Assembly: GCA_016206785.1 (NCBI GenBank)
Contig: JACQQV010000039.1
Coordinates: forward strand, 5,978-69,977
DNA from: Candidatus Omnitrophota bacterium
GTDB lineage: Bacteria > Omnitrophota > Gorgyraeia > JACQQV01
DNA: 64,000 bases
Direction: 5' to 3'
Shown in pieces: positions 6,052 through 20,284 of this stretch. The position numbers were made by a program, and so were the translations under genes. The notes under the pieces were generated by a model. That model was not told the DNA's origin. It worked only from the letters and a program-made list of their open reading frames with translations, and did no database searches. How positions within the stretch are numbered: position 1 is the stretch's first letter; each line of letters opens with the position of its first letter.

Positions 6052-6101
6052 CAATTGTCAAATACTAAAAAAAGTATACATGAAAAAGTTGCAATTGTCA
6101 A
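6052..6101. repeat. Two direct copies of CAATTGTCAA 40 bp apart, flanking an A7-centred palindrome ATACT-A7-AGTAT
   Basis: 6052-6061 and 6092-6101 are identical; each carries TTGACA on the minus strand; the palindrome 6062-6078 overlaps the -10 element. Confidence 0.6.
6073..6101 (-). promoter_or_regulatory. Sigma70-type promoter TTGACA-17-TATACT driving the riboswitch leader
   Basis: -35 TTGACA (6101..6096), 17-nt spacer, -10 TATACT (6078..6073) on the minus strand; predicted TSS near 6065. Confidence 0.55.
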
Positions 6102-7306
6102 GGGGGAGACTTTAAAAAAGTCTCTCCCGGGACCTTTTTAAGAAGAATCCAGAAGGCGATGGTCATCCAAACCAAAAGACAAAAGAGGGCTCCGCGATAA
6201 TTCCAGGGAAAGTGGGACTTGAAAAGCCAGACAACGCTCCCCCACACCAAGGGTCCTGTGATGGCCGCCAGCCGTCCTATAAGGCCCAGACAACCGAAAA
6301 CCTCTGCGAGATACTCACGAGAGGTGAAACGGATGACCAGCACTCGGCTGGCGACCCAGGTGGATCCCATCACCGTTCCGATGAGTCCCCCCGTGAACCA
6401 AAAGTGCCAACGTAGCGTTGCAAGGATGGCGCAGAGAAATCCAGCACACCATCCACCGAGACTTAAGAGGAGGATCCTTTTTGCCCCGAACCGGTCCGTG
6501 AATATTCCAGCAACGAAAGCGCTTACGATGGCGAATAGGGTTGTCAGGAAGAAGAAAGTAATCATTTCACGGTCATTAAGGCCGATCACTTTTTGGGTAT
6601 AGACCGACATAAACAGGATCACGGGTTGAATCGCCATTAACGAAAAGAAATGGGCTTTAACGAACGGTCGTAAAGGGGTTCCCTTCTTGAAATGTTCCAT
6701 TCCCTTTTTAAATCGTTGAGAAGTCGCGTGGAGGAGGGAGAAAGAGGGGGAAAGAAATGCAGGCGAGAGATCTCGAACAATGAGAAAACATGGAAGAGAA
6801 AAAAGAAGAAAGAAGAGCGCCGTAGGAAGGAAAGCCGCTTGATACCCTTGTGTCAAGACAAAAGGTCTTACAATCGCTAGTCCTATGAGGGTTCCACAGT
6901 ACCCCAGAGAAACACCGAGGCCCGAAACTTTTCCGATTGTTTCTTTTGATCCCACCTCAGGAAGGAGCGCGTCATAGAAAAGAAGACCCAACTGGTAACC
7001 GACATTGGCAATACCAAAAAAGAAAAGGCCCCATCCTAACGAGGAGATGCGGGATAAAAGGGCGGTCGCCATCACACACAAAAATGTAGTAGGAACGAGA
7101 AAAATCATCCGCCGTTGGAGGTGATCTGAAAGCGCTCCCAAAAAGGGCATCAAAAGACTGGCAACAAAGATCGAAACGGATGTTGCGACGGCGTAAAGGA
7201 GATCAGATCCACCGCGATCCTGGGTGACCCAAAGAGGAAAGTATAAGGAAAGGATGTTGATGGAGAAGAGGGTGTTGGCGAGGTCATAGGTTGACCAGGC
7301 CAACAT
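6098..7306 (-). CDS. MFS transporter, Atg22-like family
   Basis: About 12 predicted TM segments; N-terminal AWSTYDLANTLF matches the Atg22-like MFS signature; start moved to ATG 7306 because a terminator hairpin lies inside the longer ORF. Confidence 0.8.
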   Translation of the reverse strand: MLAWSTYDLANTLFSINILSLYFPLWVTQDRGGSDLLYAVATSVSIFVASLLMPFLGALSDHLQRRMIFLVPTTFLCVMATALLSRISSLGWGLFFFGIANVGYQLGLLFYDALLPEVGSKETIGKVSGLGVSLGYCGTLIGLAIVRPFVLTQGYQAAFLPTALFFLLFSLPCFLIVRDLSPAFLSPSFSLLHATSQRFKKGMEHFKKGTPLRPFVKAHFFSLMAIQPVILFMSVYTQKVIGLNDREMITFFFLTTLFAIVSAFVAGIFTDRFGAKRILLLSLGGWCAGFLCAILATLRWHFWFTGGLIGTVMGSTWVASRVLVIRFTSREYLAEVFGCLGLIGRLAAITGPLVWGSVVWLFKSHFPWNYRGALFCLLVWMTIAFWILLKKVPGETFLKSPP

Positions 7307-7307
7307 T

Positions 7308-7342
7308 CTCAAAAAAGAAAGAGCCCCCTTTTTAGGGGGCTC
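7308..7342 (-). terminator. Intrinsic terminator after small secreted-protein paralog B
   Basis: Perfect 8-bp stem GAGCCCCC/GGGGGCTC, 6-nt loop, followed on the minus strand by UUUCUUUUUU; 27 nt past the stop at 7370. Confidence 0.6.
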
Positions 7343-7369
7343 TTGGTGAATCACCTAAAGCTCAGTCGT

Positions 7370-7742: not shown

Positions 7743-7771
7743 AGTATATCAAAATAAATAACCTTTGTCAA
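7743..7771 (-). promoter_or_regulatory. Sigma70-type promoter TTGACA-17-TATACT for paralog B
   Basis: -35 TTGACA (7771..7766, overlapping the fadD-like stop), 17-nt spacer, -10 TATACT (7748..7743). Confidence 0.5.
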
Positions 7772-9561
7772 TTTTTATTTGGATGCGCCTCCTCATAAAG
7801 GGAATCGATAAGGTTTTGATATTTTTCATATAAGCGTTTCCGTTTGACTTTAAGAGTTGGCGTAAGATCCCCCTCTCCTTGCGTCAATACTTTCGTGAGC
7901 AACGCAAACTTTTTAACTTTTTCAAAACTGGCAAGATCTTTGAGACATCTTTCAATTCGATGATGGAAAAGAGAAAGAATTTCAGGATGGGTCAAAAGGG
8001 AATCGAGATCCTTGAGCGGAAGACCTTTCTTCGCCGCCAGTCTCTCCAATGGGTCCAACCGAGGAATGATGAGCGCCACGATATATTTGCGTTTATCGCC
8101 AAAGATGACCGCTTCTTCGATGAAGGGGTCTTTCTTGAGAAGGGCTTCTACTTTCTGAGGAGAGACGTATTTGCCGCCACTTGTTTTGAGGAGGTCCTTC
8201 TTCCGGTCGGTAATGGTGAGGAAGCCTTCTGAATCCAGAAATCCGATATCTCCCGTGAGAAGGTAATCTCCTTGGAACGAAGCTTTCGTGAGATCCTCCC
8301 TCTGAAAATACCCTTGCATGACGTTCGGCCCCCGAACAAGAATTTCCCCGTCCTCCGCGATCTTCACCTCGACGCCTTCAATCGGAAGTCCCACACTCCC
8401 CCATTTGAATCGAGTCGGTCGGTTGACGGAGATCACGGGCGAGGTCTCTGTCAGACCGTATCCCTCCAGGATCATGCAATGGAATGCGGCAAAGAATTCA
8501 TGGACCTCGACCGAAAGGGGTGCGCTTCCCGAAATAAAAAACCTTAGCTGCTTCCCAATTTTTCTGCGAAGTTTTCTCAAAACCAGAAGCAGGGCAAGGG
8601 GATATTGGAGGCGCTCATGCCAAAGAAGAGGCGTTTTGTATTGGAGAGACCTTGCTTTTTCTCGTCCTTGCTTGATGGCCCACAAAATGAGGGCGCGTTC
8701 AACAAAATTTTTTTTAGCGACGGCGGCTAAGATCGCCTCTTGGATTTTCTCGAAAAACCGAGGAACACCGCTCACCACGGTTGGCTGAACCTCCTGCATG
8801 TTTTGAAAAACAGTGTCCATATTTTCCGCATACGCGATGGTTCCTCCCCGCGAAAGGAAAAAGTAGAAACCAGCCATCCTTTCAAAGACATGGCTTAAAG
8901 GGAGGAAAGAGAGGTAGAGATCCTTCTCGGAGATCGGGATCGCTTCACTGCAGGAGCGGCAATTGGAAAGGAAGTTGTCGTGCGAAAGCATGACCCCTTT
9001 CGGTTCGCCAGTCGTCCCTGAAGTATAGATGATGGTTGCCGTGTCGTTTTTTCGTACCTGTTGGAGTCGTTCGAGGAACACCCTTTCCTCTTTTTTTCTG
9101 AAGTCCTCTCCTTCCGAAAGGGCATTTGAGAAGTAGGGCTCTTCAAAGGGGAGCGTGGGGTTTTTCCAGGAAGAAAGCGTTTGGCAGAAAGAGAGCCGTG
9201 AGACAAGAAGAAACCGCGCGCCGGAGTCGTTCAGGAGTTGTTCAACTTCCGTCGGGGTAAGGGTGGTATAGATCGGTACAGTGATGCAGCCAATGGAAAC
9301 AATGGCAAGGTCCGATATCGCCCACTCGGGACGATTTTCCGAAAAGAGAGCGACGCGGTCCCCTTTTTGAAGGCCATGCTTCAGGAGGTAGCCGGCGAGA
9401 TGAAGGATCCTTTCGTTGACTTCCTTCCAGGAAAGACTCTGGTAAGCCCCTCCCCTTTTAAAACGAAGGCATTCCCGGTCGGCATATCGCAAGGCCCGGG
9501 ATCGAAACATCCCGTAGAGGACCTCTTCATCGATTTTTAAATTGAGGTTGTCTTTTGTCAA
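7768..9561 (-). CDS. Long-chain fatty acid--CoA ligase (AMP-dependent synthetase)
   Basis: AMP-binding motif TSGTTGEPKGVMLSHDN; 597 aa. Confidence 0.85.
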   Translation of the reverse strand: MTKDNLNLKIDEEVLYGMFRSRALRYADRECLRFKRGGAYQSLSWKEVNERILHLAGYLLKHGLQKGDRVALFSENRPEWAISDLAIVSIGCITVPIYTTLTPTEVEQLLNDSGARFLLVSRLSFCQTLSSWKNPTLPFEEPYFSNALSEGEDFRKKEERVFLERLQQVRKNDTATIIYTSGTTGEPKGVMLSHDNFLSNCRSCSEAIPISEKDLYLSFLPLSHVFERMAGFYFFLSRGGTIAYAENMDTVFQNMQEVQPTVVSGVPRFFEKIQEAILAAVAKKNFVERALILWAIKQGREKARSLQYKTPLLWHERLQYPLALLLVLRKLRRKIGKQLRFFISGSAPLSVEVHEFFAAFHCMILEGYGLTETSPVISVNRPTRFKWGSVGLPIEGVEVKIAEDGEILVRGPNVMQGYFQREDLTKASFQGDYLLTGDIGFLDSEGFLTITDRKKDLLKTSGGKYVSPQKVEALLKKDPFIEEAVIFGDKRKYIVALIIPRLDPLERLAAKKGLPLKDLDSLLTHPEILSLFHHRIERCLKDLASFEKVKKFALLTKVLTQGEGDLTPTLKVKRKRLYEKYQNLIDSLYEEAHPNKN

Positions 9562-10312
9562 GAAATGCTGAGACGCCTTCCTTCATGTCCTCTGTTTCAC
9601 AGATCTTTCCAAAGCCCTTCGCCTCCTCATGAAGCCCTTCCTCCAACGAGGCGCGACGGCTTTGATCGATCAGTGACAAAATCTGGGTAACCGCCACCAT
9701 GCCCTTGGAGGCGATTTTCTTTGCCAGCCCTTTCGCCTGTTTTAAAAGGTCTTGGTCGGGGACAACGCTGTTGACGAGCCCTATGCGAAAGGCTTCCTGC
9801 GCCGTCATCATATCTCCTGTGAGCATCAGTTCCGTTGCCTTGCTCAGTCCTACGATTCGGGGGAGTCTCTGAGTTCCTCCGAATCCTGGGATGATCCCTA
9901 AATTAATTTCGGGTTGACCGAATCGCGCCCGATCGCCTGCAATCCGGAGATGACAGGCCATCGTCAGTTCATTTCCACCTCCCAAGCAGACGGCGTTCAC
10001 GGCAGCGATAACCGGTTTTCCTAATTTCTCGATCTTATTCAAAATGTCCTGTCCTCGTCTGGCCAATTGCTCCGCCTGCGTTCCGGAGGCGATCCCCCGG
10101 AATTCCTTGATGTCTGCCCCTGCAATGAAGGCCTGCGGATTTTGAGAGGTGAAAAGGACAACCTTTGTTTCCGGGTCTGTCTTCAAAAGATCAAAAAGTT
10201 GGTCAAGTTCCTTTAGGACCTCTTGATTCAAGGTGTTGACAGGAGGATGATCGAAAATAAGGGTCGTCACCCCCTCCTCCTTGGAAATTTTGAAGAATTG
10301 AAAAGTGTCCAT
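9527..10312 (-). CDS. Enoyl-CoA hydratase/isomerase (crotonase family)
   Basis: Crotonase-fold signatures (..IAAVNAVCLGGGNELTMACHLRIAG..); AGGAG SD. Confidence 0.85.
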   Translation of the reverse strand: MDTFQFFKISKEEGVTTLIFDHPPVNTLNQEVLKELDQLFDLLKTDPETKVVLFTSQNPQAFIAGADIKEFRGIASGTQAEQLARRGQDILNKIEKLGKPVIAAVNAVCLGGGNELTMACHLRIAGDRARFGQPEINLGIIPGFGGTQRLPRIVGLSKATELMLTGDMMTAQEAFRIGLVNSVVPDQDLLKQAKGLAKKIASKGMVAVTQILSLIDQSRRASLEEGLHEEAKGFGKICETEDMKEGVSAFLDKRQPQFKNR

Positions 10313-10327
10313 CAGCTCTCCTTTGTC

Positions 10328-11542
10328 TTAGGAATACGTAAAAAATCCTTTTTTCGTTTTAAGGCCGAGACGATTTGCCTTTGTCATTCTCCTTAAGAGA
10401 GGAGCGGGCCAAAAGCGTCCTCCCATTTGGAAACTCCACACGTCCAATTGGCGGACAATCACGTCGATTCCCACTTGATCGGCAAAATGAAGAAGTCCCT
10501 GTTTCGATGGGGGGAATCCGATCCCGGTGAGCATTGCAAGATCGATGTCGCCTGCTCGGCCAATTCCCTCCTGGAGGCAGAGGGCAGCTTCGTTGATCAT
10601 GGGAAAGATCATTCTTTCAACGGAGAATGGCTGTTTGGGATACTTTTTGGAGAGGTTTTGAAGGAGAGATTTCATTTCCTCATCCACTTCAATTTTCTCC
10701 CCATACGTGTAAAACCCTTTCCCCCTTTTCATGCCGTAACGACCTGCGGTTTGAAGATGCCCCCAGATCTCGGCAGGTTTCATCCGTTCTCCATACTCTT
10801 CCAAAAGTGTTTTTACGACACTATGGCAGACTTCAAGCCCCAAAGTGTCGACGAGTGTAAAAGGGCCCATGGGAAATCCGAATTCGACCATCGCCCGATC
10901 GATCTCCTGAAGGCCAGTACTTCCCTCTTGGAGGGCGTAAGATGCCTCGTTGAGGTACGGCATAAGGAGGCGATTGACGAGGAAACCTGCGCACTCGTTC
11001 ACCCGGATGGGAAGTTTCCTTAAGCTTTCTGCAAAGGAAGTGACATCGGTGACCGTCTCCTCGGAGGTCTCCAGTCCCGGTATAATTTCAACCAGCTTCA
11101 TCACATGGGCAGGGTAAAAGAAATGCATGCCGATGACTTTTTCCGGGCGGGCGGTCGTGGCACCGAGTTGGGAAATGGAGAGCGCAGATGTGTTGGATGC
11201 GAGAATCGCACTTTTGGGACAGGCACGGTCCAATTCTTGAAAGACATTTTTTTTGACACCGATATCCTCGAAGACCGCTTCAATAACGATGTCTATTTCT
11301 TTAAAATCTGCGTAACTCGTCGTAGGGCGAATGAGGACGATCTTCGATTCGACTTCTTCCGTGGTCATCTTCCCTTTTTGCACCCGTCCCTCATAGATCT
11401 CACGGATCCGTTTCAAACCAGACTGCACCAGATGCTCATTTAAATCCTTAAAAATAACAGGAATGCCTGAATAAGAGATCGTTTGCGCGATCTCCGAACC
11501 CATGGCTCCTGCTCCCACGACAGCCGCTTTGTAGATGTACAT
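10328..11542 (-). CDS. 3-hydroxyacyl-CoA dehydrogenase
   Basis: N-terminal Rossmann motif AVVGAGAMGSEIA plus C-terminal 3HCDH domain; completes a beta-oxidation trio. Confidence 0.85.
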   Translation of the reverse strand: MYIYKAAVVGAGAMGSEIAQTISYSGIPVIFKDLNEHLVQSGLKRIREIYEGRVQKGKMTTEEVESKIVLIRPTTSYADFKEIDIVIEAVFEDIGVKKNVFQELDRACPKSAILASNTSALSISQLGATTARPEKVIGMHFFYPAHVMKLVEIIPGLETSEETVTDVTSFAESLRKLPIRVNECAGFLVNRLLMPYLNEASYALQEGSTGLQEIDRAMVEFGFPMGPFTLVDTLGLEVCHSVVKTLLEEYGERMKPAEIWGHLQTAGRYGMKRGKGFYTYGEKIEVDEEMKSLLQNLSKKYPKQPFSVERMIFPMINEAALCLQEGIGRAGDIDLAMLTGIGFPPSKQGLLHFADQVGIDVIVRQLDVWSFQMGGRFWPAPLLRRMTKANRLGLKTKKGFFTYS

Positions 11543-11594
11543 GAAGTCCCCTTCGTTATTCTAACAGGATGATCCCCACCGGTCAATTTTCCTT

Positions 11595-13664
11595 TCAGGG
11601 ACCCCAAACCAGTTGCTTAATCTCCGGGAGGTGTTTCAAGGTTTCTTCCTCGCCCCTGCGGATAAATTTCTTCGCTTCAAAAAACTCGAACCAACTGGCA
11701 CTAATGGTGGTGGGGCGAATGACGACGTCTGCGTTGCGACAGGCGATCTCTGAAATTTCATATTCCATGGTCTGCATGCTCTGCATCATGATGTCAAAGA
11801 TATTTGGAATAAAGACGCGCCGGAGTTTCTTACGCAGTCGGTAAAGGGACCGGATGAAAAAATTTTTCTTGAGGACTGCGGCCATCTTTTTCTCTTCCGT
11901 CTCTTCGAGGCGTTTTCTTCTCTCAAGAACCGCTTGTGGACTGGGCAGTACATTGACCGCGATAATTTTATTGGCACCGCACCGGCGGAGGGTTTCAATG
12001 GGAACTGGAGACACCACAGCCCCATCGACAATCGTTTGTCCATCTCGGAGGATAGGCTCTACGATGCCGGGGATGGACATGCTGGCCCTCACCGCTTCAA
12101 AGAGAAGGCCCTTGTCCAGGATCAATTCCTCGCGGGTATTGAGATCTACTGCAACGACCTTCAGAGGAAAGGAGGCGTCTTGGAAAGTTCGGCTGCCGAG
12201 GAGGTTCTTCAAAAACCCGGAGACTTTTACCCCTTTAAAGAATCCCCGTGTCCACAAAAAGTTGAAATCGGCGAAGAGGGAAAAAGTTCTTGCGCGACTC
12301 GAGAATCTTTCGGCGATTTTTTCCATTTCATCCGGTTTCTTTCCCGAGGCCCAAACCGCCGCAACAATGGCGCCCATACTGGTCCCCGCCACCACATCGA
12401 TTGGAATCTTTTCCTTCTCGAGGACTTTCAGGACACCGACGTGGGCAAGTCCCAGTGCCGCCCCACTCCCTAAGGCAAGCCCCACGAGGACATCTCCAAT
12501 TTCCCGTGCCATATACCGAACCATCTTGCTGTAATGGGAGGTGGGACTCCCGATCACGAAGGGGATCCCTTTGAGTTGGATGTAGTCTTGGAGGGTTTGG
12601 GTATAGGGGAGGACCTGGTTAATCTTTTCGCCGAGCATTTCTTCTTTTCGTAAGAGGGACGCACGATGTTCCGGTTTCTTTTCATTTAAAATGATCCGGA
12701 TTTTGTCACGAATCTCTTTATGCTGAAGAGAAGAGTCCAGAACTTCTTTTGTTTGCAGAAGGTGTTCTCGGGGGGCATCCGTCATAAGATAGATGAGGTC
12801 GGATTGCGTCAAAATATTCTGTGTGAGAACGTCATTTCGGGTAGGAAGATCCAAGAGGATAAAGTCATAAGAAAAAGCGAGATGGCTCAAAAGGGCCGTG
12901 ATCTTCCTTTCGTCCCCCTCTTTAAATTCATGGAGGGTTAGGCCAAGGAGGTGAAAGCCGGACGGGTGAGTCGTCACATATTTTTGGACGATCTCCCCTT
13001 CAGCGCTTCCCACCTTTTTCAGATCAAAGTTATTCTTCATTTCCAGTTTTAAGAGGGTATGGATAGTATCCCCCTCGCCGTTGAAGTCGATGACGATGGT
13101 CTTCCGTCTCGTTTCTAACGTCAGGCTCCCGGCGAGGTTAATCGCGAAGGAGGTCTTTCCGGCTTGGGGCACGACGCTGTAGATTGAAATGATCTTGGAC
13201 TCCTTGATCCTTTCCCCTTCCCGATCTTTTCGCTTGAGGCGATTGCTTAAGACCCGACTGATCTGAATGGTGACTTGGGGAGAACGCTGAATGATCTGGT
13301 TGAAGCTCTCCTTCCCGAGCCGTAGGAGTAATGCATCATTTTGAACGACCACATTGACCGAATGGGGCTCCCCCGTCAAAAGGGAGAGCTCCCCGAAATA
13401 GTCTCCCTCGTACAAATAGGCAAAAATCTTTTCGCGTTGCTCTTCCTGGGAAAATACCTTTACCCTGCCGGAGACAATGGCGTAAAAGCAGTCAGCAGGA
13501 TCTCCTTCGCGGTAAATGAAATCACCTTTTTTGTATTCAATAAGCCTCATTTCGTTTGCGAGAAGACGCAATTCCGGTTCTTGCAGACCCGAAAAGAGGG
13601 GCAATCGTCGCAAGACTTCTACCTTATCAATCTTATCGATCTGTTTAAAATACCACCGTGTCAT
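11595..13664 (-). CDS. Three-domain protein: cNMP-binding domain / degenerate MinD-ParA-like domain / patatin-like phospholipase
   Basis: CAP-type cNMP-binding signature (..GDYFGELSLL..); degenerate P-loop SVVPQAGKT; patatin motifs GxGxxG (GSGAALG), GTSMG and DGAV; start ATG 13664 forms an ATGA overlap with the upstream stop. Confidence 0.75.
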   Translation of the reverse strand: MTRWYFKQIDKIDKVEVLRRLPLFSGLQEPELRLLANEMRLIEYKKGDFIYREGDPADCFYAIVSGRVKVFSQEEQREKIFAYLYEGDYFGELSLLTGEPHSVNVVVQNDALLLRLGKESFNQIIQRSPQVTIQISRVLSNRLKRKDREGERIKESKIISIYSVVPQAGKTSFAINLAGSLTLETRRKTIVIDFNGEGDTIHTLLKLEMKNNFDLKKVGSAEGEIVQKYVTTHPSGFHLLGLTLHEFKEGDERKITALLSHLAFSYDFILLDLPTRNDVLTQNILTQSDLIYLMTDAPREHLLQTKEVLDSSLQHKEIRDKIRIILNEKKPEHRASLLRKEEMLGEKINQVLPYTQTLQDYIQLKGIPFVIGSPTSHYSKMVRYMAREIGDVLVGLALGSGAALGLAHVGVLKVLEKEKIPIDVVAGTSMGAIVAAVWASGKKPDEMEKIAERFSSRARTFSLFADFNFLWTRGFFKGVKVSGFLKNLLGSRTFQDASFPLKVVAVDLNTREELILDKGLLFEAVRASMSIPGIVEPILRDGQTIVDGAVVSPVPIETLRRCGANKIIAVNVLPSPQAVLERRKRLEETEEKKMAAVLKKNFFIRSLYRLRKKLRRVFIPNIFDIMMQSMQTMEYEISEIACRNADVVIRPTTISASWFEFFEAKKFIRRGEEETLKHLPEIKQLVWGP

Positions 13665-14365
13665 CGTTTTTTCTCCATGACCCTGATGAAATTCTGGCAA
13701 CCCTTTTTCGTCCGTGGAAGGGGATCGAGGGGACACGAGGCGCACAGGGGACTCTTCCGACAGTACCTCTTCCCCACCTCGACGAGGAGGGCATGGTATT
13801 CGTTAAAGAGAGAGGCGCGATGAGGTAAAGTGTCCGTAAAATAATCTTGGATTTCTTCGTAACGTTCATCTCCCCGAAGGAGGCCGTGTCGGGAGAGAAC
13901 GCGCCGGGTATACGCATCGACGACAAAAACAGGTTTCCCCCCCGCATACAGTAAGATGCTGTCCACTGTCTCTTCGCCGAGTCCGTCTATTGCGAGAAGT
14001 TCTTTTCGGAGAGGGCCGGTCGGGTGAAGAAACAGGGCCTCTAGGTTTCCCTCCCATTTTCTAAAAAGATAGGAGAGGAAATTTTTGACCCGCTTCGCCT
14101 TGACATTGAAAAACCCGGAAGGGCGTATCGTTTTTGCGAGTGTTTCTTGATTGAGGCGATAAAGACGATCTGCACGAAGGAGCCTTTTTTTCTCAAGGGC
14201 CCGGATCGCCTTTTCCACATTCGACCAAGCGGTGTTTTGGGTCAAGATCGCTCCCACCACCACTTCAAAAGGTGATTTTGCAGGCCACCAATGGCGTTTT
14301 CCAAAAGTCCTGTACAGCCGCCTATAAATCCAGCGTAGCACTTTTCCGTCAAAATTGTTCCGCAA
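13661..14365 (-). CDS. Endonuclease III-like HhH-GPD base-excision repair protein
   Basis: HhH-GPD fold features plus C-terminal Cys cluster CRKSPLCASCPL (4Fe-4S); resembles the endonuclease III-related family. Confidence 0.75.
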   Translation of the reverse strand: MRNNFDGKVLRWIYRRLYRTFGKRHWWPAKSPFEVVVGAILTQNTAWSNVEKAIRALEKKRLLRADRLYRLNQETLAKTIRPSGFFNVKAKRVKNFLSYLFRKWEGNLEALFLHPTGPLRKELLAIDGLGEETVDSILLYAGGKPVFVVDAYTRRVLSRHGLLRGDERYEEIQDYFTDTLPHRASLFNEYHALLVEVGKRYCRKSPLCASCPLDPLPRTKKGCQNFIRVMEKKR

Positions 14366-15452
14366 ATTCGATCCTCCTTAAGATAGAGGGGTGACTGTAA
14401 AAGAAGAACTCGATGAGTCGGTCGGGAGACTCATCTTCTAAATTTTGTTGAGCGAGTTTTTTCATGGAGGAAACAAAAATTTCCCTCAGCCCCGTCGTCC
14501 GTAACGCAAAAGCATCCGCCCTTCGCTCCAACATTCTGGAAAAGCCGTTTTGAAGCGGCATGAGACAAAAATTCAAGAGAGAAAAAAGGAGGAGAAAAAG
14601 AGGAAGAGCCGCCATATTCCCCACATCGCCTATCTGGAAAAGGGGGAGAAGTCCAATGAGGAGCTGCTGCACCAGATAAATCCCCCCAAATGTCAGGAAG
14701 GCACTGAAGAGGAGGGAAGCTGCCACATGGTGCTCTTTGTCATGGCCCAGTTCGTGGGCAAACACCACTTTAATCTCATCATGACTCAAACTCCGGAGCA
14801 GGGTGTCTCCAAGAACGATTTTCTTCAGTTTGCCTATTCCTAGAACAGCGGCATTCGCTTTCCTTGTGTCCCTGCTGAGGTCGATCGCTCTTACGGAGTG
14901 GATATCTCTTCCCTGGCTCCGGGCAAAGGTCTTGAGCGTCTGAATGAGCAGTTGATCCTCGACGGGGGTGTACCGGTAGAAAAGGGGGACGATCCAGACC
15001 GGGAAAAGTTGTGTCAAAATCCAGCTGTAGAGGAACCATAAAATTCCGAAACCGATCCACCATCTTTCACTCATGGTCCAGACAAAGAAGTAGCCGGTTT
15101 CCACCAAGAGGAGAAAAAAGAGGAGAGAAAGGAGCTCTTTCTTCCCTTCTCTGGCACACCACCTTTTGAAAGTCAACAGGGATAGCCCGAACTGTTTCTC
15201 CAGGAAATAGCTGACGTAAAGGTGTGTTGGAAGGTGAATAAAAAAAAGAAAAAATGAGAGACCGGTGGCGTAAACGGCGATCCGAAGCCAGTAAAAAGAG
15301 AACCCCCTAAGGATCGCTTGCTCTAATCTCTGGGCACTCCCTAAGGACATAAAGAGGCAGAGAAAAATGATGCCTATCATGAAGTCAATAAAGAAAAAGA
15401 CGATTTTAATGCGGTGATACCGTTTTGCCTTTTCTTTTGATTTATCGACCAT
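14349..15452 (-). CDS. M48-family zinc metallopeptidase (Ste24/HtpX-like) with N-terminal multi-TM region
   Basis: HELGH zinc motif (AHELGHDKEHH) after about 5 TM helices; start moved to internal ATG 15452. Confidence 0.75.
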   Translation of the reverse strand: MVDKSKEKAKRYHRIKIVFFFIDFMIGIIFLCLFMSLGSAQRLEQAILRGFSFYWLRIAVYATGLSFFLFFIHLPTHLYVSYFLEKQFGLSLLTFKRWCAREGKKELLSLLFFLLLVETGYFFVWTMSERWWIGFGILWFLYSWILTQLFPVWIVPLFYRYTPVEDQLLIQTLKTFARSQGRDIHSVRAIDLSRDTRKANAAVLGIGKLKKIVLGDTLLRSLSHDEIKVVFAHELGHDKEHHVAASLLFSAFLTFGGIYLVQQLLIGLLPLFQIGDVGNMAALPLFLLLFSLLNFCLMPLQNGFSRMLERRADAFALRTTGLREIFVSSMKKLAQQNLEDESPDRLIEFFFYSHPSILRRIEFAEQF

Positions 15453-16242
15453 CGATGAGCACCACGGGATCTCCGCGGCGTAAGGACAATGCCTTTGCCG
15501 CGCTGTCTTTTTGTAACGCCAGTTCCAGAAGACCTGAACTCCCAAAAAGAGCGAGGGGTCCCTGACCGCCTTCGGCGTAGGTTTTAAAGAGTCCTTTGAT
15601 CAGATACTTTCCCGCCTTGATCCACACTCCCTTCCTCTTCCCTCCTCTTTTAAAACGGAGATAATCTCTCCGGCGGATATTAGTGATGAGATTTCCAAAA
15701 CGATCTTCCGTAAGAATCTTTCCCTTCAGACGAGATGGGCGAAAAGAAACTTTCCATAGAGGAAGCGTTTTGAGTGAGGAGACGGCCTTCCCAAGACGCT
15801 GGGGCGGAATACCGAGAGAAAGCTTGGCGGCGCAAGGGGCGACAATGTCTCTTCCGTGAAAGGTGTGGCTCACGGAAGCACCTGCGCCAATCGGGGAGAT
15901 CTGATAAAGAGAAACCTTTTTCAGTTCTTCAACAATCGGACCCAAAAGACCATTGTCAGGGGCGAGGAAGAGATAATCCGACGACCGAACGATGAGGAGC
16001 GCTCTTTCCGTCCCCACGCCGGGATCCACGACAGCGAGATGAAGGGTTCCTTTGGGAAAGTATCGGTAAGTTCTCCATAAGGTCAGGCTTGCATGAAGGA
16101 TATCGTGCGGCGGAACTTGGTGTGTAATATCAACAAAGGAGACGTGGGGATTGTGTCTGAGGATGACTCCTTTCATTTCTGCCGCATAAGAGTCTTTCTC
16201 TCCAAAGTCTGTCGTCAGGGTAATGATTTTTCTCCGCTTCAT
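15442..16242 (-). CDS. S-adenosylmethionine hydroxide adenosyltransferase family (DUF62)
   Basis: N-terminal ITLTTDFG..DSY..EMKGVI signature of the SAM hydrolase / fluorinase-like fold; ATGA overlap with the upstream PilZ gene. Confidence 0.7.
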   Translation of the reverse strand: MKRRKIITLTTDFGEKDSYAAEMKGVILRHNPHVSFVDITHQVPPHDILHASLTLWRTYRYFPKGTLHLAVVDPGVGTERALLIVRSSDYLFLAPDNGLLGPIVEELKKVSLYQISPIGAGASVSHTFHGRDIVAPCAAKLSLGIPPQRLGKAVSSLKTLPLWKVSFRPSRLKGKILTEDRFGNLITNIRRRDYLRFKRGGKRKGVWIKAGKYLIKGLFKTYAEGGQGPLALFGSSGLLELALQKDSAAKALSLRRGDPVVLIDGR

Positions 16243-16607
16243 GCGTGATAGTGTGTTAAATGATACGTGACGTATTGATTCAATATCTCTCGATCCTGCA
16301 CATTCAGTCTTGTGAAATAGATCGCGACGAAGTATTTCTCAGGGTTTCCATTTTCACGAACGGTCTTTTCAGACCTCACCACAACCCCCTCGCATCGAAT
16401 CTCCTGGGGAGCTTTCCTTTCCTGACCCATGACAGGAACCGATAAGGTAATGGATACTTTTGCAAAAGTCGGAATAGGTTGAGAAACCTGACAATAGGCG
16501 CCCGTGATACTGATATTTTTCGTCTCTGTGACCAGACGAAAGGCATCCCCCCTTAACGTCATGGAAAGTGCTTTTTCGATGCGGGGGGAGCCACGCTGCT
16601 CTACCAT
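16239..16607 (-). CDS. PilZ domain protein
   Basis: RxxxR (RGSPRIEK) and NxSxxG (NISITGAY) motifs, 122 aa. Confidence 0.65.
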   Translation of the reverse strand: MVEQRGSPRIEKALSMTLRGDAFRLVTETKNISITGAYCQVSQPIPTFAKVSITLSVPVMGQERKAPQEIRCEGVVVRSEKTVRENGNPEKYFVAIYFTRLNVQDREILNQYVTYHLTHYHA

Positions 16608-17176
16608 AGAGGCTTCCTTTCACTGGAAGATTCGAGTCGAAGAAGCTGCTTCTTGACCTTTTTCCCCCATGCGAACCCTCCTATTCCCTTCGAGGTCATG
16701 ACGATGCGGTGACACGGAATAAGGAGAGGGAGAGGATTTTGATGGAGGGCTTGACCACAAGCCCGGGAACCTCCCGGACATCGGATTCTTTTGGCCACCC
16801 ACCGGTATGTTCGAACGGTGCCGCAGGGAATTTGGCGCACCAAGGTGAGCACCCTTTTTTGAAAAGGGGTCCGTGATGAAAGGTCGAGAGGGAGAAGGGG
16901 CGGAGTTTGTTTTCCTTTGAAATAGTCACACACATAAGCCTCGGTTTTTCTAAATAAGTTCCCTCTTTTTTGAATGGCGGTCGGGTATCTGAGAAGAATT
17001 TTCCTGCGCAAAAGCGACCGCTTCCCCCTTTCCCGGAGAAGAGCCGCGATCCCTTTTGGCGTTTCGACCACGCCGAGCCATCCCAGGGGACTTTTGATCA
17101 TAAAATAGGAAACGACGTCACGCGGCTTTTTTCTGAAAGAGTTGCCAGCACCCTTTCCCGCAGAAAAACTTGCCAT
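16601..17176 (-). CDS. ogt: Methylated-DNA--protein-cysteine methyltransferase (O6-alkylguanine alkyltransferase)
   Basis: Active-site PCHR motif (IPCHRIV) in the C-terminal domain; N-terminal start possibly later (MIKSPLG). Confidence 0.8.
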   Translation of the reverse strand: MASFSAGKGAGNSFRKKPRDVVSYFMIKSPLGWLGVVETPKGIAALLRERGKRSLLRRKILLRYPTAIQKRGNLFRKTEAYVCDYFKGKQTPPLLPLDLSSRTPFQKRVLTLVRQIPCGTVRTYRWVAKRIRCPGGSRACGQALHQNPLPLLIPCHRIVMTSKGIGGFAWGKKVKKQLLRLESSSERKPLW

Positions 17177-17299: not shown

Positions 17300-18331
17300 T
17301 TATTTCTCAGTTGTTTTCTGCTGTATCATCCATTGTTTTTCTAAAAAGGCGTTCAATTTTTCACGGCTGTCATCCGCCATCGACACAAAAGAGATCCCAA
17401 CGCACTCCATGTGGCTTGCGTTCTGGAGATGTTGCCAAACCACTTCTCCGAGGATACGAAGGGGATCGGAGTGAAAAGGCACCTTGAGGCTTAACTGAAA
17501 GAAAGTGGGCAGCGCCTCTGAAGGAGGCCGTTCGATACAAAGACCCCCTGGGGAAATATTCAAAATACGGGCCTTTGTTTTCGTGGTCCGTTGATAAACA
17601 GTTCCGAGTTCCAAAGAAGGGCGGTCCTCAAAAGGAAGGGCATCACAGACAAGACGCGGGTGTTGTCTTTTTTCCAAAAATCGTTCTTCACGAGGGAGAT
17701 GTCCCTGTTCTTGGAGGAAGGTTCCTTTGAGTTCCAAGAGCTTTTGTCCATCGATGAGTTCAATCGCTTCAGGCTCTGAAGTGGTATAGGCAGGATGTGA
17801 AAAGACACCGGTAACGAAGAAATAGCCACCGGTAGCTCCCCTTTTTTGCACCTTCTCGTTAAACTCCTGAATGTCCCGAGAGTCAAAAAATGTTCTCCGA
17901 TTGTCACAACGTACAAGATACCGTTTATGGCGGAGCTGGAAAGAGTCTCCCGTTCCTTCGATTTGAATGCTTGGCCACATCTTCTCGAAAATCCGAAGGC
18001 AAAGTTTTGAAAAATCTTCCTCCTTCATTTCTCTCAACTCTTCAAGGCCCACCCCCTCCACTTTTTTCGACAGCGGGAGATCGCTTTTCTCAGAAGTCTG
18101 AGGAACTGTCCGACGGGATTCCTTCTTCCATAGAAAGCCTGTCCCCATGGGAAGGAAGATCCATGAAAGGAGAGTGAGGAGAAGGGCAAGGACCCTCACG
18201 TGAAGGGGGTAATGGCTTGCTGCGATATTGGCGATAAAAAGGAGGGAGAGAGGAGCCAAAGAAATCCATGCCACTGTAATCACGACGCCCATAGTCAGAA
18301 AATTCTTTCTCAAGAAACGCTTCCCTTCCAA
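17300..18331 (-). CDS. Membrane-anchored protein with Mrr-like restriction-endonuclease-fold domain fused to a C-terminal PilZ domain
   Basis: Two N-terminal TM helices; middle block EDFSKLCLRIFEKMW..GDSFQLRHKRYLVRCDNRR..GGYFFVTGVFS..LIDGQKLLEL matches the Mrr_cat layout; the (Q/E)xK lysine is replaced (RCD); C-terminus has PilZ motifs RLVCD / NISPGG. Confidence 0.6.
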   Translation of the reverse strand: MEGKRFLRKNFLTMGVVITVAWISLAPLSLLFIANIAASHYPLHVRVLALLLTLLSWIFLPMGTGFLWKKESRRTVPQTSEKSDLPLSKKVEGVGLEELREMKEEDFSKLCLRIFEKMWPSIQIEGTGDSFQLRHKRYLVRCDNRRTFFDSRDIQEFNEKVQKRGATGGYFFVTGVFSHPAYTTSEPEAIELIDGQKLLELKGTFLQEQGHLPREERFLEKRQHPRLVCDALPFEDRPSLELGTVYQRTTKTKARILNISPGGLCIERPPSEALPTFFQLSLKVPFHSDPLRILGEVVWQHLQNASHMECVGISFVSMADDSREKLNAFLEKQWMIQQKTTEK

Positions 18332-18714
18332 TTTTTGATATAAGAAACAATTTCTTCCAGGGGGGTCCCTGGGCCGAACAGCCTTCCAACACCCAGCTTG
18401 GAGAGTTTTTTTTGATCTGCTTCGGGAATGATCCCTCCTCCGGTCACCAACATCTCCTTGATTCCTTTTTCTTTCAAAAGCTTCATCATCTTTCGGAACA
18501 CGGTCATATGGGATCCTGTAAGAACACTCACGGCGATGACGTTTGCCTTCTTTTGAATCGCTGCGTTGACGATCATTTCGGGTGTTTGCCGGAGCCCCAG
18601 ATAGATAACGTCCATCCCCCCCTCTTTGAGGGCAGAGGCGACGATCTGAATTCCTCGATCATGTCCGTCTAGACCCGGCTTTGCCAATACAATTTTTTTC
18701 TTTTTTTTCATCAT
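18310..18714 (-). CDS. Methylmalonyl-CoA mutase small (cobalamin-binding) subunit
   Basis: B12-binding DxHxxG motif (DGHDRG), 134 aa. Confidence 0.85.
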   Translation of the reverse strand: MMKKKKKIVLAKPGLDGHDRGIQIVASALKEGGMDVIYLGLRQTPEMIVNAAIQKKANVIAVSVLTGSHMTVFRKMMKLLKEKGIKEMLVTGGGIIPEADQKKLSKLGVGRLFGPGTPLEEIVSYIKNWKGSVS

Positions 18715-18715
18715 C

Positions 18716-20284
18716 TCAAAAAATCGGTTTCTGGTGGTATTCGCCGAACACCCTCTTTAGTTTCTCGACGATTTCTCCCAAGGTGGCGTAGGCATGCGCC
18801 GCCTCAACGAGGCTCTCCATTAAATTTTCCTCGGTTTTCGCAGCCTCTCCAAGGTGCTCAAGCGCTTGTCTGACTTTTTGGGGGCTTCTCATCTTGCGTA
18901 CCCGTTTAAGCCGCGCCACTTGCTTGCGTTCGATACCGGCTCCGATGGTGAGAAGTGGAATCTCGGATTCTTCCTTTTGAAGATAGGCATTCACCCCGAC
19001 GATAATTCTTTTCTTTTGCTCGATTTCCCGCTGATAGCACCTTGCGGCGTGGGCGATCTCCTTCTGGAAGAAACCCTGTTCCAGCGCAGGGACAACCCCT
19101 CCTTTTTCCTGAATACGTCGGAAATATTCTTCCGCTCTGTGTTCTAGACGGTCGGTCAGGCATTCAATCGCATAAGATCCTGCCAGCGGATCCACAATCT
19201 CCGTTATTCCGATCTCATGGAGAAGAATTTGTTGCGTACGAAGAGCGATACGGACCGCTTTTTCGGTAGGGAGTGCCAGTTGTTCATCCATCGAGTTGGT
19301 ATGGAGACTTTGCGTCCCACCCAGTACGGCGGAGAGGGCCTCATAGGCTGTGCGAACAATATTGTTTTCTGGTTGCTGGCGTGTGAGTGTACACCCTGCG
19401 GTTTGAGTGTGAAACCGCAAAAGCCAAGAACGTTTCTTTTTTGCCTTGTACTCGTTTCTCATCTTTTTCGCCCAAATCCTCCGTGCCGCTCGGAATTTCG
19501 CAATTTCTTCCAAGAAGTTTAAGTGGGCATTGAAGAAGAAGGAAAGGCGGGGGGCGAAATGGTCAACGGCCAATCCCCGCTTAAGACTTTCTTCCACGTA
19601 GGTAAAACCATCCGCGAGGGTAAACGCAAGTTCCTGAGCGGCCGTGGAACCCGCCTCACGGATATGGTACCCACTGATGCTGATGGTGTTCCAAAGGGGC
19701 AAGTGATGCGTGCAGTGTTCAATGACATCGACGACGAGTTTCAAGGAAGGCCTGGGTGGGAAGATCCATTCCCTCTGCGCAATGTATTCTTTAAGGATGT
19801 CGTTCTGAAGGGTACCTTTTAGACGGCGCAGAGAAGCCCCTTGTTTCTGAGCGCAGGCAATGTAAAAAGCAAGCATCACGATGGCGGGTCCATTAATGGT
19901 CATGGAGGTAGAGATGCGATCGAGAGATATTTTCTTAAAGAGATCTTCCATGTCTTGAAGGGTATCGATGGCCACCCCGCAACGTCCCACTTCTCCCTCG
20001 GCTCTGGGGCTATCGGAATCAACGCCCATGAGGGTAGGCATGTCAAATGCGACTGAGAGTCCCATCTGCCCTTCTGCGAGGAGAAGATGAAAGCGTTTGT
20101 TTGTTTCTTCTGCGGTTCCGAATCCAGCAAATTCCCGGATCGTCCATGGCTTTTGACGATACATCGTAGGGTGGATGCCCCGCGTAAAGGGAAAGGTCCC
20201 AGGATCCCCAAGGTGGTGTGCATAGCCTCTTTCCGGAAAGTCGTTCGGCGTGTAATAGGTTCTGTTTCTTCTGGAAGATGTCAT
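18716..20284 (-). CDS. Methylmalonyl-CoA mutase large (catalytic) subunit
   Basis: Conserved MCM N-terminus (..FPFTRGIHPTMYRQKPWTIREFAGFG..), 522 aa. Confidence 0.9.
   Translation of the reverse strand: MTSSRRNRTYYTPNDFPERGYAHHLGDPGTFPFTRGIHPTMYRQKPWTIREFAGFGTAEETNKRFHLLLAEGQMGLSVAFDMPTLMGVDSDSPRAEGEVGRCGVAIDTLQDMEDLFKKISLDRISTSMTINGPAIVMLAFYIACAQKQGASLRRLKGTLQNDILKEYIAQREWIFPPRPSLKLVVDVIEHCTHHLPLWNTISISGYHIREAGSTAAQELAFTLADGFTYVEESLKRGLAVDHFAPRLSFFFNAHLNFLEEIAKFRAARRIWAKKMRNEYKAKKKRSWLLRFHTQTAGCTLTRQQPENNIVRTAYEALSAVLGGTQSLHTNSMDEQLALPTEKAVRIALRTQQILLHEIGITEIVDPLAGSYAIECLTDRLEHRAEEYFRRIQEKGGVVPALEQGFFQKEIAHAARCYQREIEQKKRIIVGVNAYLQKEESEIPLLTIGAGIERKQVARLKRVRKMRSPQKVRQALEHLGEAAKTEENLMESLVEAAHAYATLGEIVEKLKRVFGEYHQKPIF

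Follow-up and report, generated by a model that had tools for sequence, protein, structure and literature searches.

A conserved CNB–MinD-like–patatin protein encoded ahead of fatty-acid-degradation genes in Omnitrophota: a putative ligand-gated lipase

Which process is served by a protein that joins a cyclic-nucleotide-binding (CNB) type domain, a MinD-like domain and a patatin-type lipase domain? The question is raised by a gene of Candidatus Omnitrophota found in the window, i.e. the whole 64-kb stretch of DNA analysed here, which is core chromosome. The enclosing open reading frame covers positions 11595..13745 of the minus strand, and an internal ATG at 13664 gives a protein of 689 residues. 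This ATG lies 8 nt downstream of a GGAG and coincides with the starts of the homologues in the alignment. The protein is 100% identical to a protein (P0001) of a Candidatus Omnitrophica MAG. At least 156 species-level genomes carry the family, and 199 members were profiled. The features of the locus are collected in Table 1.

Three Pfam domains were identified above their thresholds: cNMP_binding (PF00027; residues 42-127, E 4e-26, 91.1 bits vs. 27.5), AAA_31 (residues 157-292, E 3e-9, 37.5 bits vs. 27) and Patatin (PF01734; residues 396-559, E 8e-34, 117.9 bits vs. a gathering threshold of 27.7). An additional CbiA match was under its own cutoff. The AlphaFold2 model of the 689-residue protein (pLDDT 83.8, pTM 0.79) was compared with solved structures using Foldseek, and the patatin, CNB and MinD/ParA folds were all matched far beyond chance. 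The three-domain architecture proposed in the first-pass annotation is thus confirmed by Pfam, AlphaFold2 and Foldseek, as is the resemblance to neuropathy target esterase (NTE) in the pairing of CNB and patatin domains. According to the same annotation, no characterised bacterial enzyme is known to have such a layout, and none was found in the literature or among the solved-structure matches. It named membership of a common annotated NTE-like family as a reason to give up its reading, and this applies in part: the label “NTE family protein” is already given to relatives by JGI, though none of these proteins has been characterised. Publications on the family were searched for in the literature on Omnitrophota, on patatin with CNB domains and on beta-oxidation, and none was found; Seymour 2023 contains nothing on it.

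Table 1. Features of the lipase gene and of its neighbours in the window
Feature	Positions	Strand	Basis or remark
Patatin-type lipase CDS, 689 aa + stop	11595..13664	-	CNB + degenerate MinD-like + RssA/NTE-type patatin
CNB-type domain, residues 14-145 (beta-roll + C-helix)	13230..13625	-	Pfam, Foldseek, model secondary structure
Phosphate-binding cassette GDYFGELSLLTGEPHSVNVV	13347..13406	-	Family profile, alignment
His101 codon	13362..13364	-	Arg at same place in canonical CNB domains
MinD/ParA-fold domain, residues 157-392, predicted pseudo-ATPase	12489..13196	-	AAA_31, Foldseek
Degenerate P-loop SVVPQAGKT, residues 163-171	13152..13178	-	Aligned to MinD SGKGGVGKT
Patatin core, residues 393-570	11955..12488	-	Pfam Patatin, family profile, PlpD match
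Gly loop GSGAALG	12435..12479	-	Patatin core
Ser429 codon (GTSMG)	12378..12380	-	Patatin core
Asp547 codon (DGAV)	12024..12026	-	Patatin core
C-terminal helical extension of RssA-type patatin module, residues 571-689	11598..11954	-	RssA alignment, model helices
ATGA start/stop overlap of lipase and HhH-GPD genes	13661..13664	-	...AAA CGA TGA / ATG ACA...
HhH-GPD glycosylase gene (EndoIII/MagIII-like)	13661..14365	-	Pfam HhH-GPD, E 2e-16
Small PilZ-domain protein, RxxxR (RGSPR) + NxSxxG (NISITG)	16239..16607	-	Recurrent upstream neighbour
3-Hydroxyacyl-CoA dehydrogenase (HCDH), FadB/FadJ C-terminal half-like	10328..11542	-	52 bp downstream of lipase gene
Enoyl-CoA hydratase (ECH)	9527..10312	-	30/45 loci
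Long-chain fatty-acid-CoA ligase (FadD-like)	7768..9561	-	42/45 loci, most conserved partner
MFS transporter	6098..7354	-	End of co-directional block in window's close clade; synteny

The patatin domain has the highest mean conservation of the three domains across the 199 members, and the MinD-like domain the lowest. The glycine loop, GTSMG and DGAV, already described as intact in the first-pass annotation, are all present, and the Ser-Asp dyad is complete. All 199 members share S429, D547 and G401-A402-A403, the last being the GAA of the oxyanion loop. This loop does not contain the usual basic residue in the Omnitrophota core of the family (GSGAALG), while divergent members have GxGxARG. The NCBIfam RssA model (NF007623) aligns over its full length, residues 393-686 corresponding to its positions 5-297 of 301 (E 1.6e-44), although the score of 152.3 bits is under the equivalog cutoff of 272. 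A basic amphipathic stretch, NFFIRSLYRLRKKLRRVF, is found within the C-terminal extension (residues 571-689). No signal peptide or transmembrane segment was found in the 689-residue sequence, in which the patatin core strand is the only hydrophobic segment. The protein is therefore predicted to be cytoplasmic, and would be a probably membrane-peripheral acyl-hydrolase of the RssA/NTE type. In one subclade, the patatin domain carries a hydrophobic hairpin insertion, which suggests that these particular members are permanently membrane-resident.

The CNB domain matches those of CRP, PKG and HCN in Foldseek (TM-target ~0.8). Its phosphate-binding cassette keeps the Gly-Glu pair in the window protein (G91-E92), and position 92 is Glu in 138 and Ile in 48 of the 199 members. 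Position 101 of the cassette is His in all 199 members and never Arg; no Arg was found there in divergent members of the family either. The missing Arg is the equivalent of CAP R82, which contacts the cyclic phosphate. This invariant change from Arg to His was overlooked in the first-pass annotation. Since the phosphate-binding Arg is always replaced, a non-canonical binding mode is suggested, and the domain might still bind a cNMP despite His101.

The MinD-like domain is structurally close to the ParA-family ATPase 3ea0 (TM-target 0.82) and to MinD 1hyq (TM-target 0.81), with a mean major-residue frequency of only 0.46. Its Walker A motif had been called degenerate from the single sequence, and the degeneracy proves to be family-wide. 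Relative to SGKGGVGKT of MinD, all 199 members are without the signature Lys of the deviant Walker A, and the first Gly has disappeared as well. The P-loop Lys (position 170) is Arg in 150 members, Lys in 19 and Cys in 11. The nearest relatives of this domain outside the family possess an intact S.KGGVGKT. Because the signature Lys is missing throughout, the P-loop Lys is mostly Arg and these outside relatives are intact, we read the domain as a putative pseudo-ATPase. It would most likely be a nucleotide-independent scaffold or dimerisation module. Of the P-loop Lys, the switch I Asp pair and the Walker B Asp, the window protein itself retains K170 (in GKT), D193 and D272, the equivalent of MinD D40 being N195, and its middle domain may have kept some residual nucleotide binding. 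A conserved surface of this domain comprises E184-T185, Q287/D289, Y378, R383 and A386-R387.

The conserved downstream genes of FadD and beta-oxidation were also overlooked in the first-pass annotation. Downstream flanks of 2.5 kb or more are available for 64 GTDB loci; 60 of these present lipid genes on the same strand downstream of the lipase gene and 4 present none. Such synteny says less about shared function in small, streamlined genomes, where co-directional arrays are long, than it does in large ones. The most common order is thiolase-3HCDH-ECH-FadD-Hydrolase_4. Where the downstream flank reaches 7 kb or more (45 loci), the partners are FadD (42 loci), Hydrolase_4 (31), HCDH (30), ECH (30), thiolase (24), ACAD (13) and ETF-QO (8). 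This conserved linkage persists across phyla: a locus labelled Lindowbacteria has the order target-FadD-thiolase-FadB-ACAD, and a locus labelled Verrucomicrobiae the order target-FadD-hydrolase-thiolase-FadB, with a 4-bp overlap between the first two genes. In the window, the lipase and HCDH genes are separated by 52 bp, the HCDH and ECH genes by 15 bp, and the ECH gene overlaps that of FadD, whose best match is FadD11. Homologues of thiolase, Hydrolase_4, GDPD and ACAD were searched for within the 64 kb and not found; without thiolase, ACAD and Hydrolase_4, the local pathway is thus incomplete. For the MFS transporter that closes the block, an LplT-like identity was considered and rejected, as NCBIfam gave weak Tet-type and generic MFS matches.

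Upstream, a PilZ gene is found within 3 kb in 32 out of 55 loci and directly adjacent in 17. In 14 of the 55 loci, which belong to one subclade, the gene directly upstream encodes a glycerophosphodiesterase (GDPD). At one of the loci (L086), GDPD overlaps the start of the target gene by 4 bp, and the whole order is Hydrolase_4-SAM_HAT-GDPD-target-thiolase-HCDH-ECH-ACAD-FadD-Hydrolase_4, with a VLCAD-like ACAD.

Because its relatives precede fatty-acid-degradation genes across phyla, lipid breakdown is the most likely role of the protein, rather than DNA repair or phage defence. We propose, with a probability of roughly 55%, that it is a ligand-gated (lyso)phospholipase or lipase that supplies beta-oxidation with fatty acids, its sensor and its enzyme domain being linked by a pseudo-ATPase scaffold. 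It would open the lipid-catabolic pathway encoded by a fad operon, removing fatty acids from phospholipids or lysophospholipids, and possibly from other acylglycerols. The released fatty acids would be activated by the neighbouring FadD and oxidised by ECH and 3-hydroxyacyl-CoA dehydrogenase, to which thiolase, acyl-CoA dehydrogenase and ETF-QO may be added in relatives. The headgroup side would be handled in these relatives by a lysophospholipase-like hydrolase and a glycerophosphodiesterase; NTE/PNPLA6 converts PC and LPC to glycerophosphocholine, a GDPD substrate (PMC9025805). The N-terminal CNB-type domain would be the regulatory input, and the MinD-fold module would relay the state of this sensor to the lipase.

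The same chemistry could serve housekeeping membrane-lipid homeostasis of the NTE/RssA kind, i.e. lysophospholipid clearance or remodelling of the cell's own membrane, with the fad genes only recycling acyl chains. This reading is consistent with the RssA-type patatin module, with retention of the gene in so many species-level genomes and in a core-chromosome context, with the hairpin of the one subclade and with the lipid A acyltransferase, MGDG synthase and LPG_synthase_TM genes found elsewhere in the window. Moreover, NTE is itself a homeostatic PC/LPC hydrolase (PMC9025805). However, a single operon that combines a full beta-oxidation set with a GDPD and another hydrolase argues for net degradation over repair, and we consider homeostasis possible but doubtful. 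The two readings differ in physiological purpose, not in chemistry, and the data cannot separate them cleanly.

A more elaborate version of the catabolic reading, which we regard as unlikely, sees in the family a post-translational switch composed of a retuned CNB domain, a MinD-derived pseudo-ATPase and a phospholipase for scavenged or host phospholipids. The CNB-fold sensor, with its invariant His, would have turned from cAMP/cGMP to another metabolite or nucleotide. The pseudo-ATPase would dimerise or dock on the membrane, perhaps with the participation of the recurrent upstream PilZ (c-di-GMP) protein. Once switched on, the phospholipase would allow ultra-small, possibly host-dependent Omnitrophota to consume scavenged or host phospholipids.

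It is quite unlikely that the substrate is instead a reserve of neutral lipid or polyester (TAG, wax ester, PHA-like), mobilised when the CNB domain senses a signal of starvation. TAG is a substrate of some patatin-family enzymes, and the GSGAALG oxyanion loop is without a basic residue, as in the ATGL type. The trio of thiolase, 3-hydroxyacyl-CoA dehydrogenase and crotonase is also used in hydroxybutyrate/PHB turnover, and in Legionella a patatin gene reportedly shares an operon (patD-bdhA) with hydroxybutyrate metabolism. Nevertheless, the adjacent GDPD genes point to glycerophospholipid headgroups, FadD is of the long-chain type and ACAD is VLCAD-like, and the neighbourhood of the gene showed no genes for the synthesis of storage lipids.

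The first-pass annotation had also raised the idea of an anti-phage effector, while seeing no cyclase or other defence partner. The idea, that of a nucleotide-activated phospholipase acting in abortive infection like CBASS CapV or Pycsar effectors, draws on PADLOC matches to PycTIR, Pycsar CNB regions and phospholipase effectors (E 1e-14 to 1e-5), on an NCBIfam CBASS_lipase match and on the presence of CapV and CapE among the structural matches. These PADLOC matches are weak and at domain level only, and the CBASS_lipase score is 23 bits vs. a cutoff of 200. As the annotation had seen, there is no cyclase, CD-NTase or defence partner among the window ORFs of at least 200 aa, and no cyclase or CD-NTase was found at the loci of six inspected relatives. 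Furthermore, the cassette Arg is missing in every member, and the gene is conserved across a phylum and beyond, in stable synteny with metabolic genes. A defence role is therefore highly improbable and was rejected.

Finally, the overlap between the start of the lipase gene and the stop of the HhH-GPD gene had been taken as a sign of co-expression with DNA-repair functions. The overlap is real, and an identical ATGA overlap is found at the P0003 locus; the NCBIfam matches of the HhH-GPD protein were all under their cutoffs. The overlap is not conserved, however. The HhH-GPD gene is absent at the corresponding position of the P0002 locus, where the target protein is 75% identical, and of the L001 locus. 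In the 55 GTDB species-level loci with an upstream flank, it is never adjacent and lies within 3 kb in only 3. The HhH-GPD gene is a neighbour and not a conserved partner. Four-base overlaps are common throughout the co-directional array of the window, to which an MGMT-like gene also belongs. Functional DNA-repair coupling through translational coupling to the glycosylase, which the two overlaps and the MGMT-like gene would favour, has practically no chance of being correct, since the synteny is not kept and such overlaps are ordinary in this array, and it was rejected as effectively refuted.

The lifestyle of Omnitrophota, which are uncultivated and for the most part ultra-small bacteria, is a matter of debate (PMC10066038). 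A conserved sensor-lipase heading a fatty-acid-degradation operon would point to lipids, possibly the phospholipids of other cells, as a regulated source of carbon and energy, and it offers a concrete, assayable entry point. For signalling biology, the family provides a natural CNB domain in which an invariant His replaces the cyclic-phosphate-binding Arg, and a MinD fold that apparently serves anew as a pseudo-ATPase linker, i.e. two testable cases of domain repurposing. In bacteria, it would also parallel the coupling of CNB and patatin domains in human NTE/PNPLA6, which is poorly understood.

Several known systems share parts of this design. Proteins of the RssA/YchK type (COG1752, the bacterial “NTE family”) have the Gly loop, GxSxG, DG and helical C-terminal extension in common with the Omnitrophota protein, but neither its CNB nor its MinD-like domain. 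Eukaryotic NTE/PNPLA6 has, as here, one or more CNB domains N-terminal to an NTE-type patatin esterase, and its glycerophosphodiester product fits the GDPD adjacent in Omnitrophota relatives. NTE possesses an N-terminal transmembrane helix, three CNB sites and no MinD-like module (PMC9025805), whereas the Omnitrophota protein has a single CNB domain, no transmembrane segment and a MinD-fold insert of 236 residues. The best solved match of the catalytic module is the patatin domain of PlpD from Pseudomonas aeruginosa (5fya/5fqu; E 1e-17, TM-target 0.84, 27-29% identity). PlpD is secreted as a type Vd autotransporter and carries POTRA and beta-barrel domains, while the Omnitrophota protein has sensor domains predicted to be cytoplasmic and no secretion signal.

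Outside the family, the middle domain comes closest in sequence to ATPases of about 400 aa with a receiver domain and a MinD/ParA-like domain (CpaE/TadZ-type; profile E 1e-30 to 1e-25). The name CpaE/TadZ was not retained for them, as the architecture alone matches and no NCBIfam cutoff was reached. They share the N-terminal sensor followed by a MinD-fold domain (residues ~140-380), but their sensor is a receiver and not a CNB domain, their S.KGGVGKT is intact, and they carry a basic amphipathic C-terminal tail and no lipase. CBASS CapV and CapE are patatin phospholipases under nucleotide control, as proposed here; their ligand acts on the lipase itself and their gene is paired with a CD-NTase, whereas the Omnitrophota protein has a separate CNB domain, metabolic synteny and no cyclase. 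Lastly, mycobacterial Pat is a cAMP-dependent acyltransferase that controls FadD-type ligases. Its effector domain is a GNAT acetyltransferase, its cAMP site is canonical, and a MinD-like domain is absent. The Omnitrophota CNB domain nevertheless matches the Pat model (E 2.5e-10), and Pat, like the Omnitrophota protein in the role proposed here, joins a CNB domain directly to an enzyme governing entry into fatty-acid catabolism.

The first-pass annotation had assigned to the 689-aa protein a CNB domain, a MinD/ParA-like domain and a patatin domain. This three-domain architecture was confirmed by Pfam, an AlphaFold2 model and Foldseek, and each of the quoted motifs (SVVPQAGKT, GSGAALG, GTSMG and DGAV) is present. 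Pfam placed cNMP_binding at residues 42-127 (E 4e-26), AAA_31 at residues 157-292 (E 3e-9, above its cutoff) and Patatin at residues 396-559 (E 8e-34); a CbiA match fell under its cutoff. With 28 family sequences as input, AlphaFold2 gave a confident model (pLDDT 83.8, pTM 0.79). Compared with the PDB by Foldseek, it matched the PlpD patatin (TM-target 0.84), the ParA-family ATPase 3ea0 (0.82), MinD 1hyq (0.81) and CRP/PKG/HCN-type CNB domains (about 0.8), and no solved chain among the matches spanned two or all of the domains. Sequence inspection revealed neither signal peptide nor transmembrane segment. The ORF finder gave a longer span than the 689-aa product (MTRWYFKQ...), which begins at an internal ATG; GGAG lies 8 nt 5' of this ATG, and homologues start at the identical position.

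The protein is 100% identical to one from a 'Candidatus Omnitrophica bacterium' MAG, labelled just 'patatin-like phospholipase family protein'. The best 120 of 685 matches have the same domains, with 94-100% query coverage and 38-75% identity, and those with a name are assigned to Omnitrophica/Omnitrophota or carry the JGI label 'NTE family protein'. When one genome per GTDB species was scanned, a relative was encoded in 156 species, and the 80 loci kept are labelled nearly all Omnitrophota or, in third-party assemblies, 'uncultured Planctomycetia'. The middle-domain profile alone, searched against 1.84 billion representatives, returned just 57 clusters at E <= 1e-30. In most of them the protein is 640-760 aa long and the domain covers approximately residues 150-390; shorter hits may represent fragments of family members. 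Divergent full-length members occur in a Verrucomicrobiae-labelled MAG (HXI83054.1, in a cluster of 48 members) and in a Candidatus Lindowbacteria-labelled MAG (MBL4889158.1). From the near-full-length relatives, species scan, middle-domain clusters and divergent members, the architecture is thus a genuine conserved family, centred on Omnitrophota and also present beyond this phylum.

Family-wide residue counts were made on 199 unique sequences. The patatin domain is the most conserved of the three (mean major-residue frequency 0.66), with S429, D547, G401-A402-A403, G427 and G431 found in 199/199 members. The NCBIfam RssA model aligned end to end with residues 393-686 but scored 152 bits, below its cutoff of 272. 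The oxyanion loop of the Omnitrophota core (GSGAALG) is devoid of the usual basic residue, and reads GxGxARG in divergent members. By all sequence and fold criteria, the protein is a patatin-like phospholipase of predicted activity, with intact and strongly conserved Ser-Asp hydrolase machinery of the RssA/NTE type. A subclade of 730-750 aa (P0030, P0039, P0042, P0047, P0069, P0074, P0084, P0111, P0119, P0120) carries within this domain a strongly hydrophobic insertion of about 40 residues (IPxFSVIxGLxAG..GWLAGFWTGLLFGFxVCV..GVVLGPLAGG; alignment columns ~580-625), probably a membrane hairpin, which the window protein lacks. P0119, the sole insertion-bearing member with an inspected locus (L086), has a glycerophosphodiester phosphodiesterase (GDPD) gene directly upstream and ACAD in its operon.

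The phosphate-binding cassette of the CNB domain, FGE[IL]SLLTGEPHSATV, is canonical-like save one position. The residue equivalent to CAP R82, the Arg contacting the cyclic phosphate, is His in 199/199 members, so that the cassette Arg of canonical cNMP receptors is missing. In eight divergent members it is never Arg, five having His and the remainder being degenerate. Ile takes the place of the cassette Glu in 48 of 199 members. The pairing of a replaced cassette Arg with another ligand has a precedent in the Trypanosoma PKA regulatory subunit, which is cAMP-independent; it appears among the structural matches as an engineered T318R mutant.

The MinD-like domain is the least conserved (mean major-residue frequency 0.46). 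Aligned to E. coli MinD, S163-V-V-P-Q-A-G-K-T171 falls on S-G-K-G-G-V-G-K-T and N195 on D40. The Walker A had been described as degenerate, and this holds across the family: the signature Lys that defines MinD/ParA ATPases is found in 0/199 members, and the first Gly is also gone. At the position of the P-loop Lys, 150 members have Arg, 19 have Lys and 11 have Cys; the window protein is in the minority keeping GKT, with a Pro within the loop. The positions that are conserved in this domain (E184-T185, Q287/D289, L352-P353, Y378, R383, A386-R387) are not part of the nucleotide site. The nearest relatives outside the family are Response_reg + AAA_31 proteins of about 400 aa, with a CpaE/TadZ-type layout; their S.KGGVGKT motif is intact and their C-terminal tail is basic and amphipathic. 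Outside the window, the P0194 cluster (577-578 aa) joins a canonical CNB domain (RTA cassette) to an intact MinD-like domain (SPKGGTGKT) and C-terminal hydrophobic segments that are probably membrane-spanning; it seems to be a counterpart of the sensor and MinD module that has no lipase. The 'sensor + MinD-fold' module thus also occurs independently. The nucleotide site of the lipase fusion appears to have decayed, and we infer a pseudo-ATPase scaffold that may retain residual nucleotide binding.

Immediately 3' of the lipase gene, on the same strand, are genes encoding a 3-hydroxyacyl-CoA dehydrogenase (HCDH; 52-bp gap), an enoyl-CoA hydratase (ECH), a FadD-type long-chain acyl-CoA ligase and an MFS transporter. 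The lipase gene and its downstream fatty-acid genes are the conserved arrangement, operon-like and comprising fatty-acid activation and beta-oxidation, with lysophospholipase-like and GDPD genes also present in relatives. Same-strand lipid genes lie downstream in 60 of the 64 GTDB loci that extend 2.5 kb or further in this direction, most commonly as thiolase-3HCDH-ECH-FadD-Hydrolase_4, with a variant ETF-QO-FadD-Hydrolase_4. Where 7 kb or more of downstream sequence was available (45 loci), we found FadD (42), Hydrolase_4 (31), HCDH (30), ECH (30), thiolase (24), ACAD (13) and ETF-QO (8). GDPD is immediately 5' of the lipase gene in one subclade (14/55 loci). The L086 locus (Hydrolase_4-SAM_HAT-GDPD (4-bp overlap)-lipase-thiolase-HCDH-ECH-ACAD-FadD-Hydrolase_4) would cover the whole route by which phospholipid is degraded to acetyl-CoA and glycerol-3-phosphate. 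The linkage holds across phyla, with lipase-FadD-thiolase-fused FadB-ACAD in the Lindowbacteria-labelled locus and M48-M28-lipase-FadD (4-bp overlap)-hydrolase-thiolase-...-FadB in the Verrucomicrobiae-labelled one. The operon of the window clade is trimmed (HCDH-ECH-FadD-small ORF-MFS); no homologue of thiolase, acyl-CoA dehydrogenase, Hydrolase_4 or GDPD was found within the 64-kb window, and most relatives retain them beside the lipase gene. A methylmalonyl-CoA mutase large-subunit gene, which belongs to the same co-directional array and lies a few genes further upstream, would suit the handling of propionyl-CoA from odd-chain fatty acids; in relatives (L081-L084) it is followed by a B12-binding subunit gene.

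We propose, with a probability of roughly 0.55 for this catalytic and catabolic core, that the enzyme acts on the cytoplasmic side of the membrane, removing acyl chains from phospholipids or lysophospholipids, and that FadD traps the released fatty acids as CoA esters for beta-oxidation; NTE converts PC and LPC to glycerophosphocholine (PMC9025805). Our confidence is lower for the regulatory details: the CNB-type domain would gate lipase activity via a ligand, the MinD-derived domain would relay the signal or hold a dimer together without ATP turnover, and membrane contact might involve a basic amphipathic helix of the C-terminal extension or, in one subclade, the hydrophobic patatin insertion. 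A homeostatic role in membrane repair, with the same chemistry for a different purpose, is inseparable from the catabolic role on present data, and we hold it as a rather unlikely alternative. Mobilisation of storage lipids fits the GDPD association less well and is more doubtful still. The suggestion that the protein is a defence effector did not survive: synteny and model scores contradict it, no nucleotide cyclase occurs among the window ORFs of at least 200 aa, and we consider it very improbable.

The window is core chromosome (rpoA, rpsD, map, adk, secY, PFK, DHQ synthase, biotin carboxylase, methylmalonyl-CoA mutase and others), with nearly all genes on the minus strand in tight co-directional arrays, where overlaps of four bases or longer are frequent; start/stop overlaps are therefore weak evidence of functional coupling here. 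The overlap from which the first-pass annotation had suggested a link to DNA repair is present in the DNA (...GGAGAAAAAACGATGACACGG..., the ATGA being shared by the lipase ATG and the TGA of the HhH-GPD gene), and a 69%-identical relative has the same overlap. The glycosylase is adjacent in 0/55 GTDB loci with upstream flank and within 3 kb in 3/55, and the M48 peptidase, not the glycosylase, immediately precedes the lipase gene in a 75%-identical relative (P0002) and at the L001 locus, so that this synteny leaves the repair link practically no credit. A small PilZ-domain gene is a commoner upstream neighbour (within 3 kb in 32/55 loci and adjacent in 17, seen in L002-L065), and its protein may be a regulatory partner of the lipase. 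Other features of the region are listed in the table; the GAF + HD_5 gene, the adjoining HD + HD_assoc gene and three PilZ genes suggest c-di-GMP signalling components.

Coordinates of the lipase gene and of surrounding features in the window
Feature	Coordinates	Strand	Remarks
Lipase gene	11595..13664	-	689 aa
ORF finder span of lipase	11595..13745	-	
Site of patatin insertion in relatives	~12249..12257		between residues ~470 and 472
Tight gene array	7768..17176	-	
HhH-GPD glycosylase	13661..14365	-	DNA-repair type; C-terminal Cys cluster; variably present among close relatives
M48 peptidase, predicted TTG start	15545		104-nt overlap with SAM_HAT gene; start probably called too far upstream
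PilZ	16239..16607	-	intact RxxxR and NxSxxG c-di-GMP motifs
MGMT-like DNA_binding_1	16601..17176	-	DNA-repair type; N-terminal extension of ~100 aa
Mrr_cat (restriction-endonuclease-like) + PilZ	17300..18331	-	343 aa; N-terminal hydrophobic region; unusual fusion, same position in close relatives L081, L083
Gap	18331..18716		
Methylmalonyl-CoA mutase large subunit	18716..20284	-	
GAF + HD_5	29364..30434	-	HD-GYP-like
HD + HD_assoc phosphohydrolase	30431..31585	-	

Literature and PDB structure searches found no published work or solved structure for the CNB-MinD-patatin architecture, and public labels are generic ('patatin-like phospholipase family protein', 'cyclic nucleotide-binding domain-containing protein', 'NTE family protein'). 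This family of sensor-lipases is well conserved and unstudied, with both regulatory domains repurposed; for a phylum without cultured members it offers a physiological hypothesis that is clear and testable. The protein is like RssA, yet under the NCBIfam equivalog cutoff. It is not an orthologue of NTE/PNPLA6, since its CNB domain is single, a transmembrane anchor is lacking and there is an extra domain. The family is not a new principle and belongs among the regulated patatin lipases.
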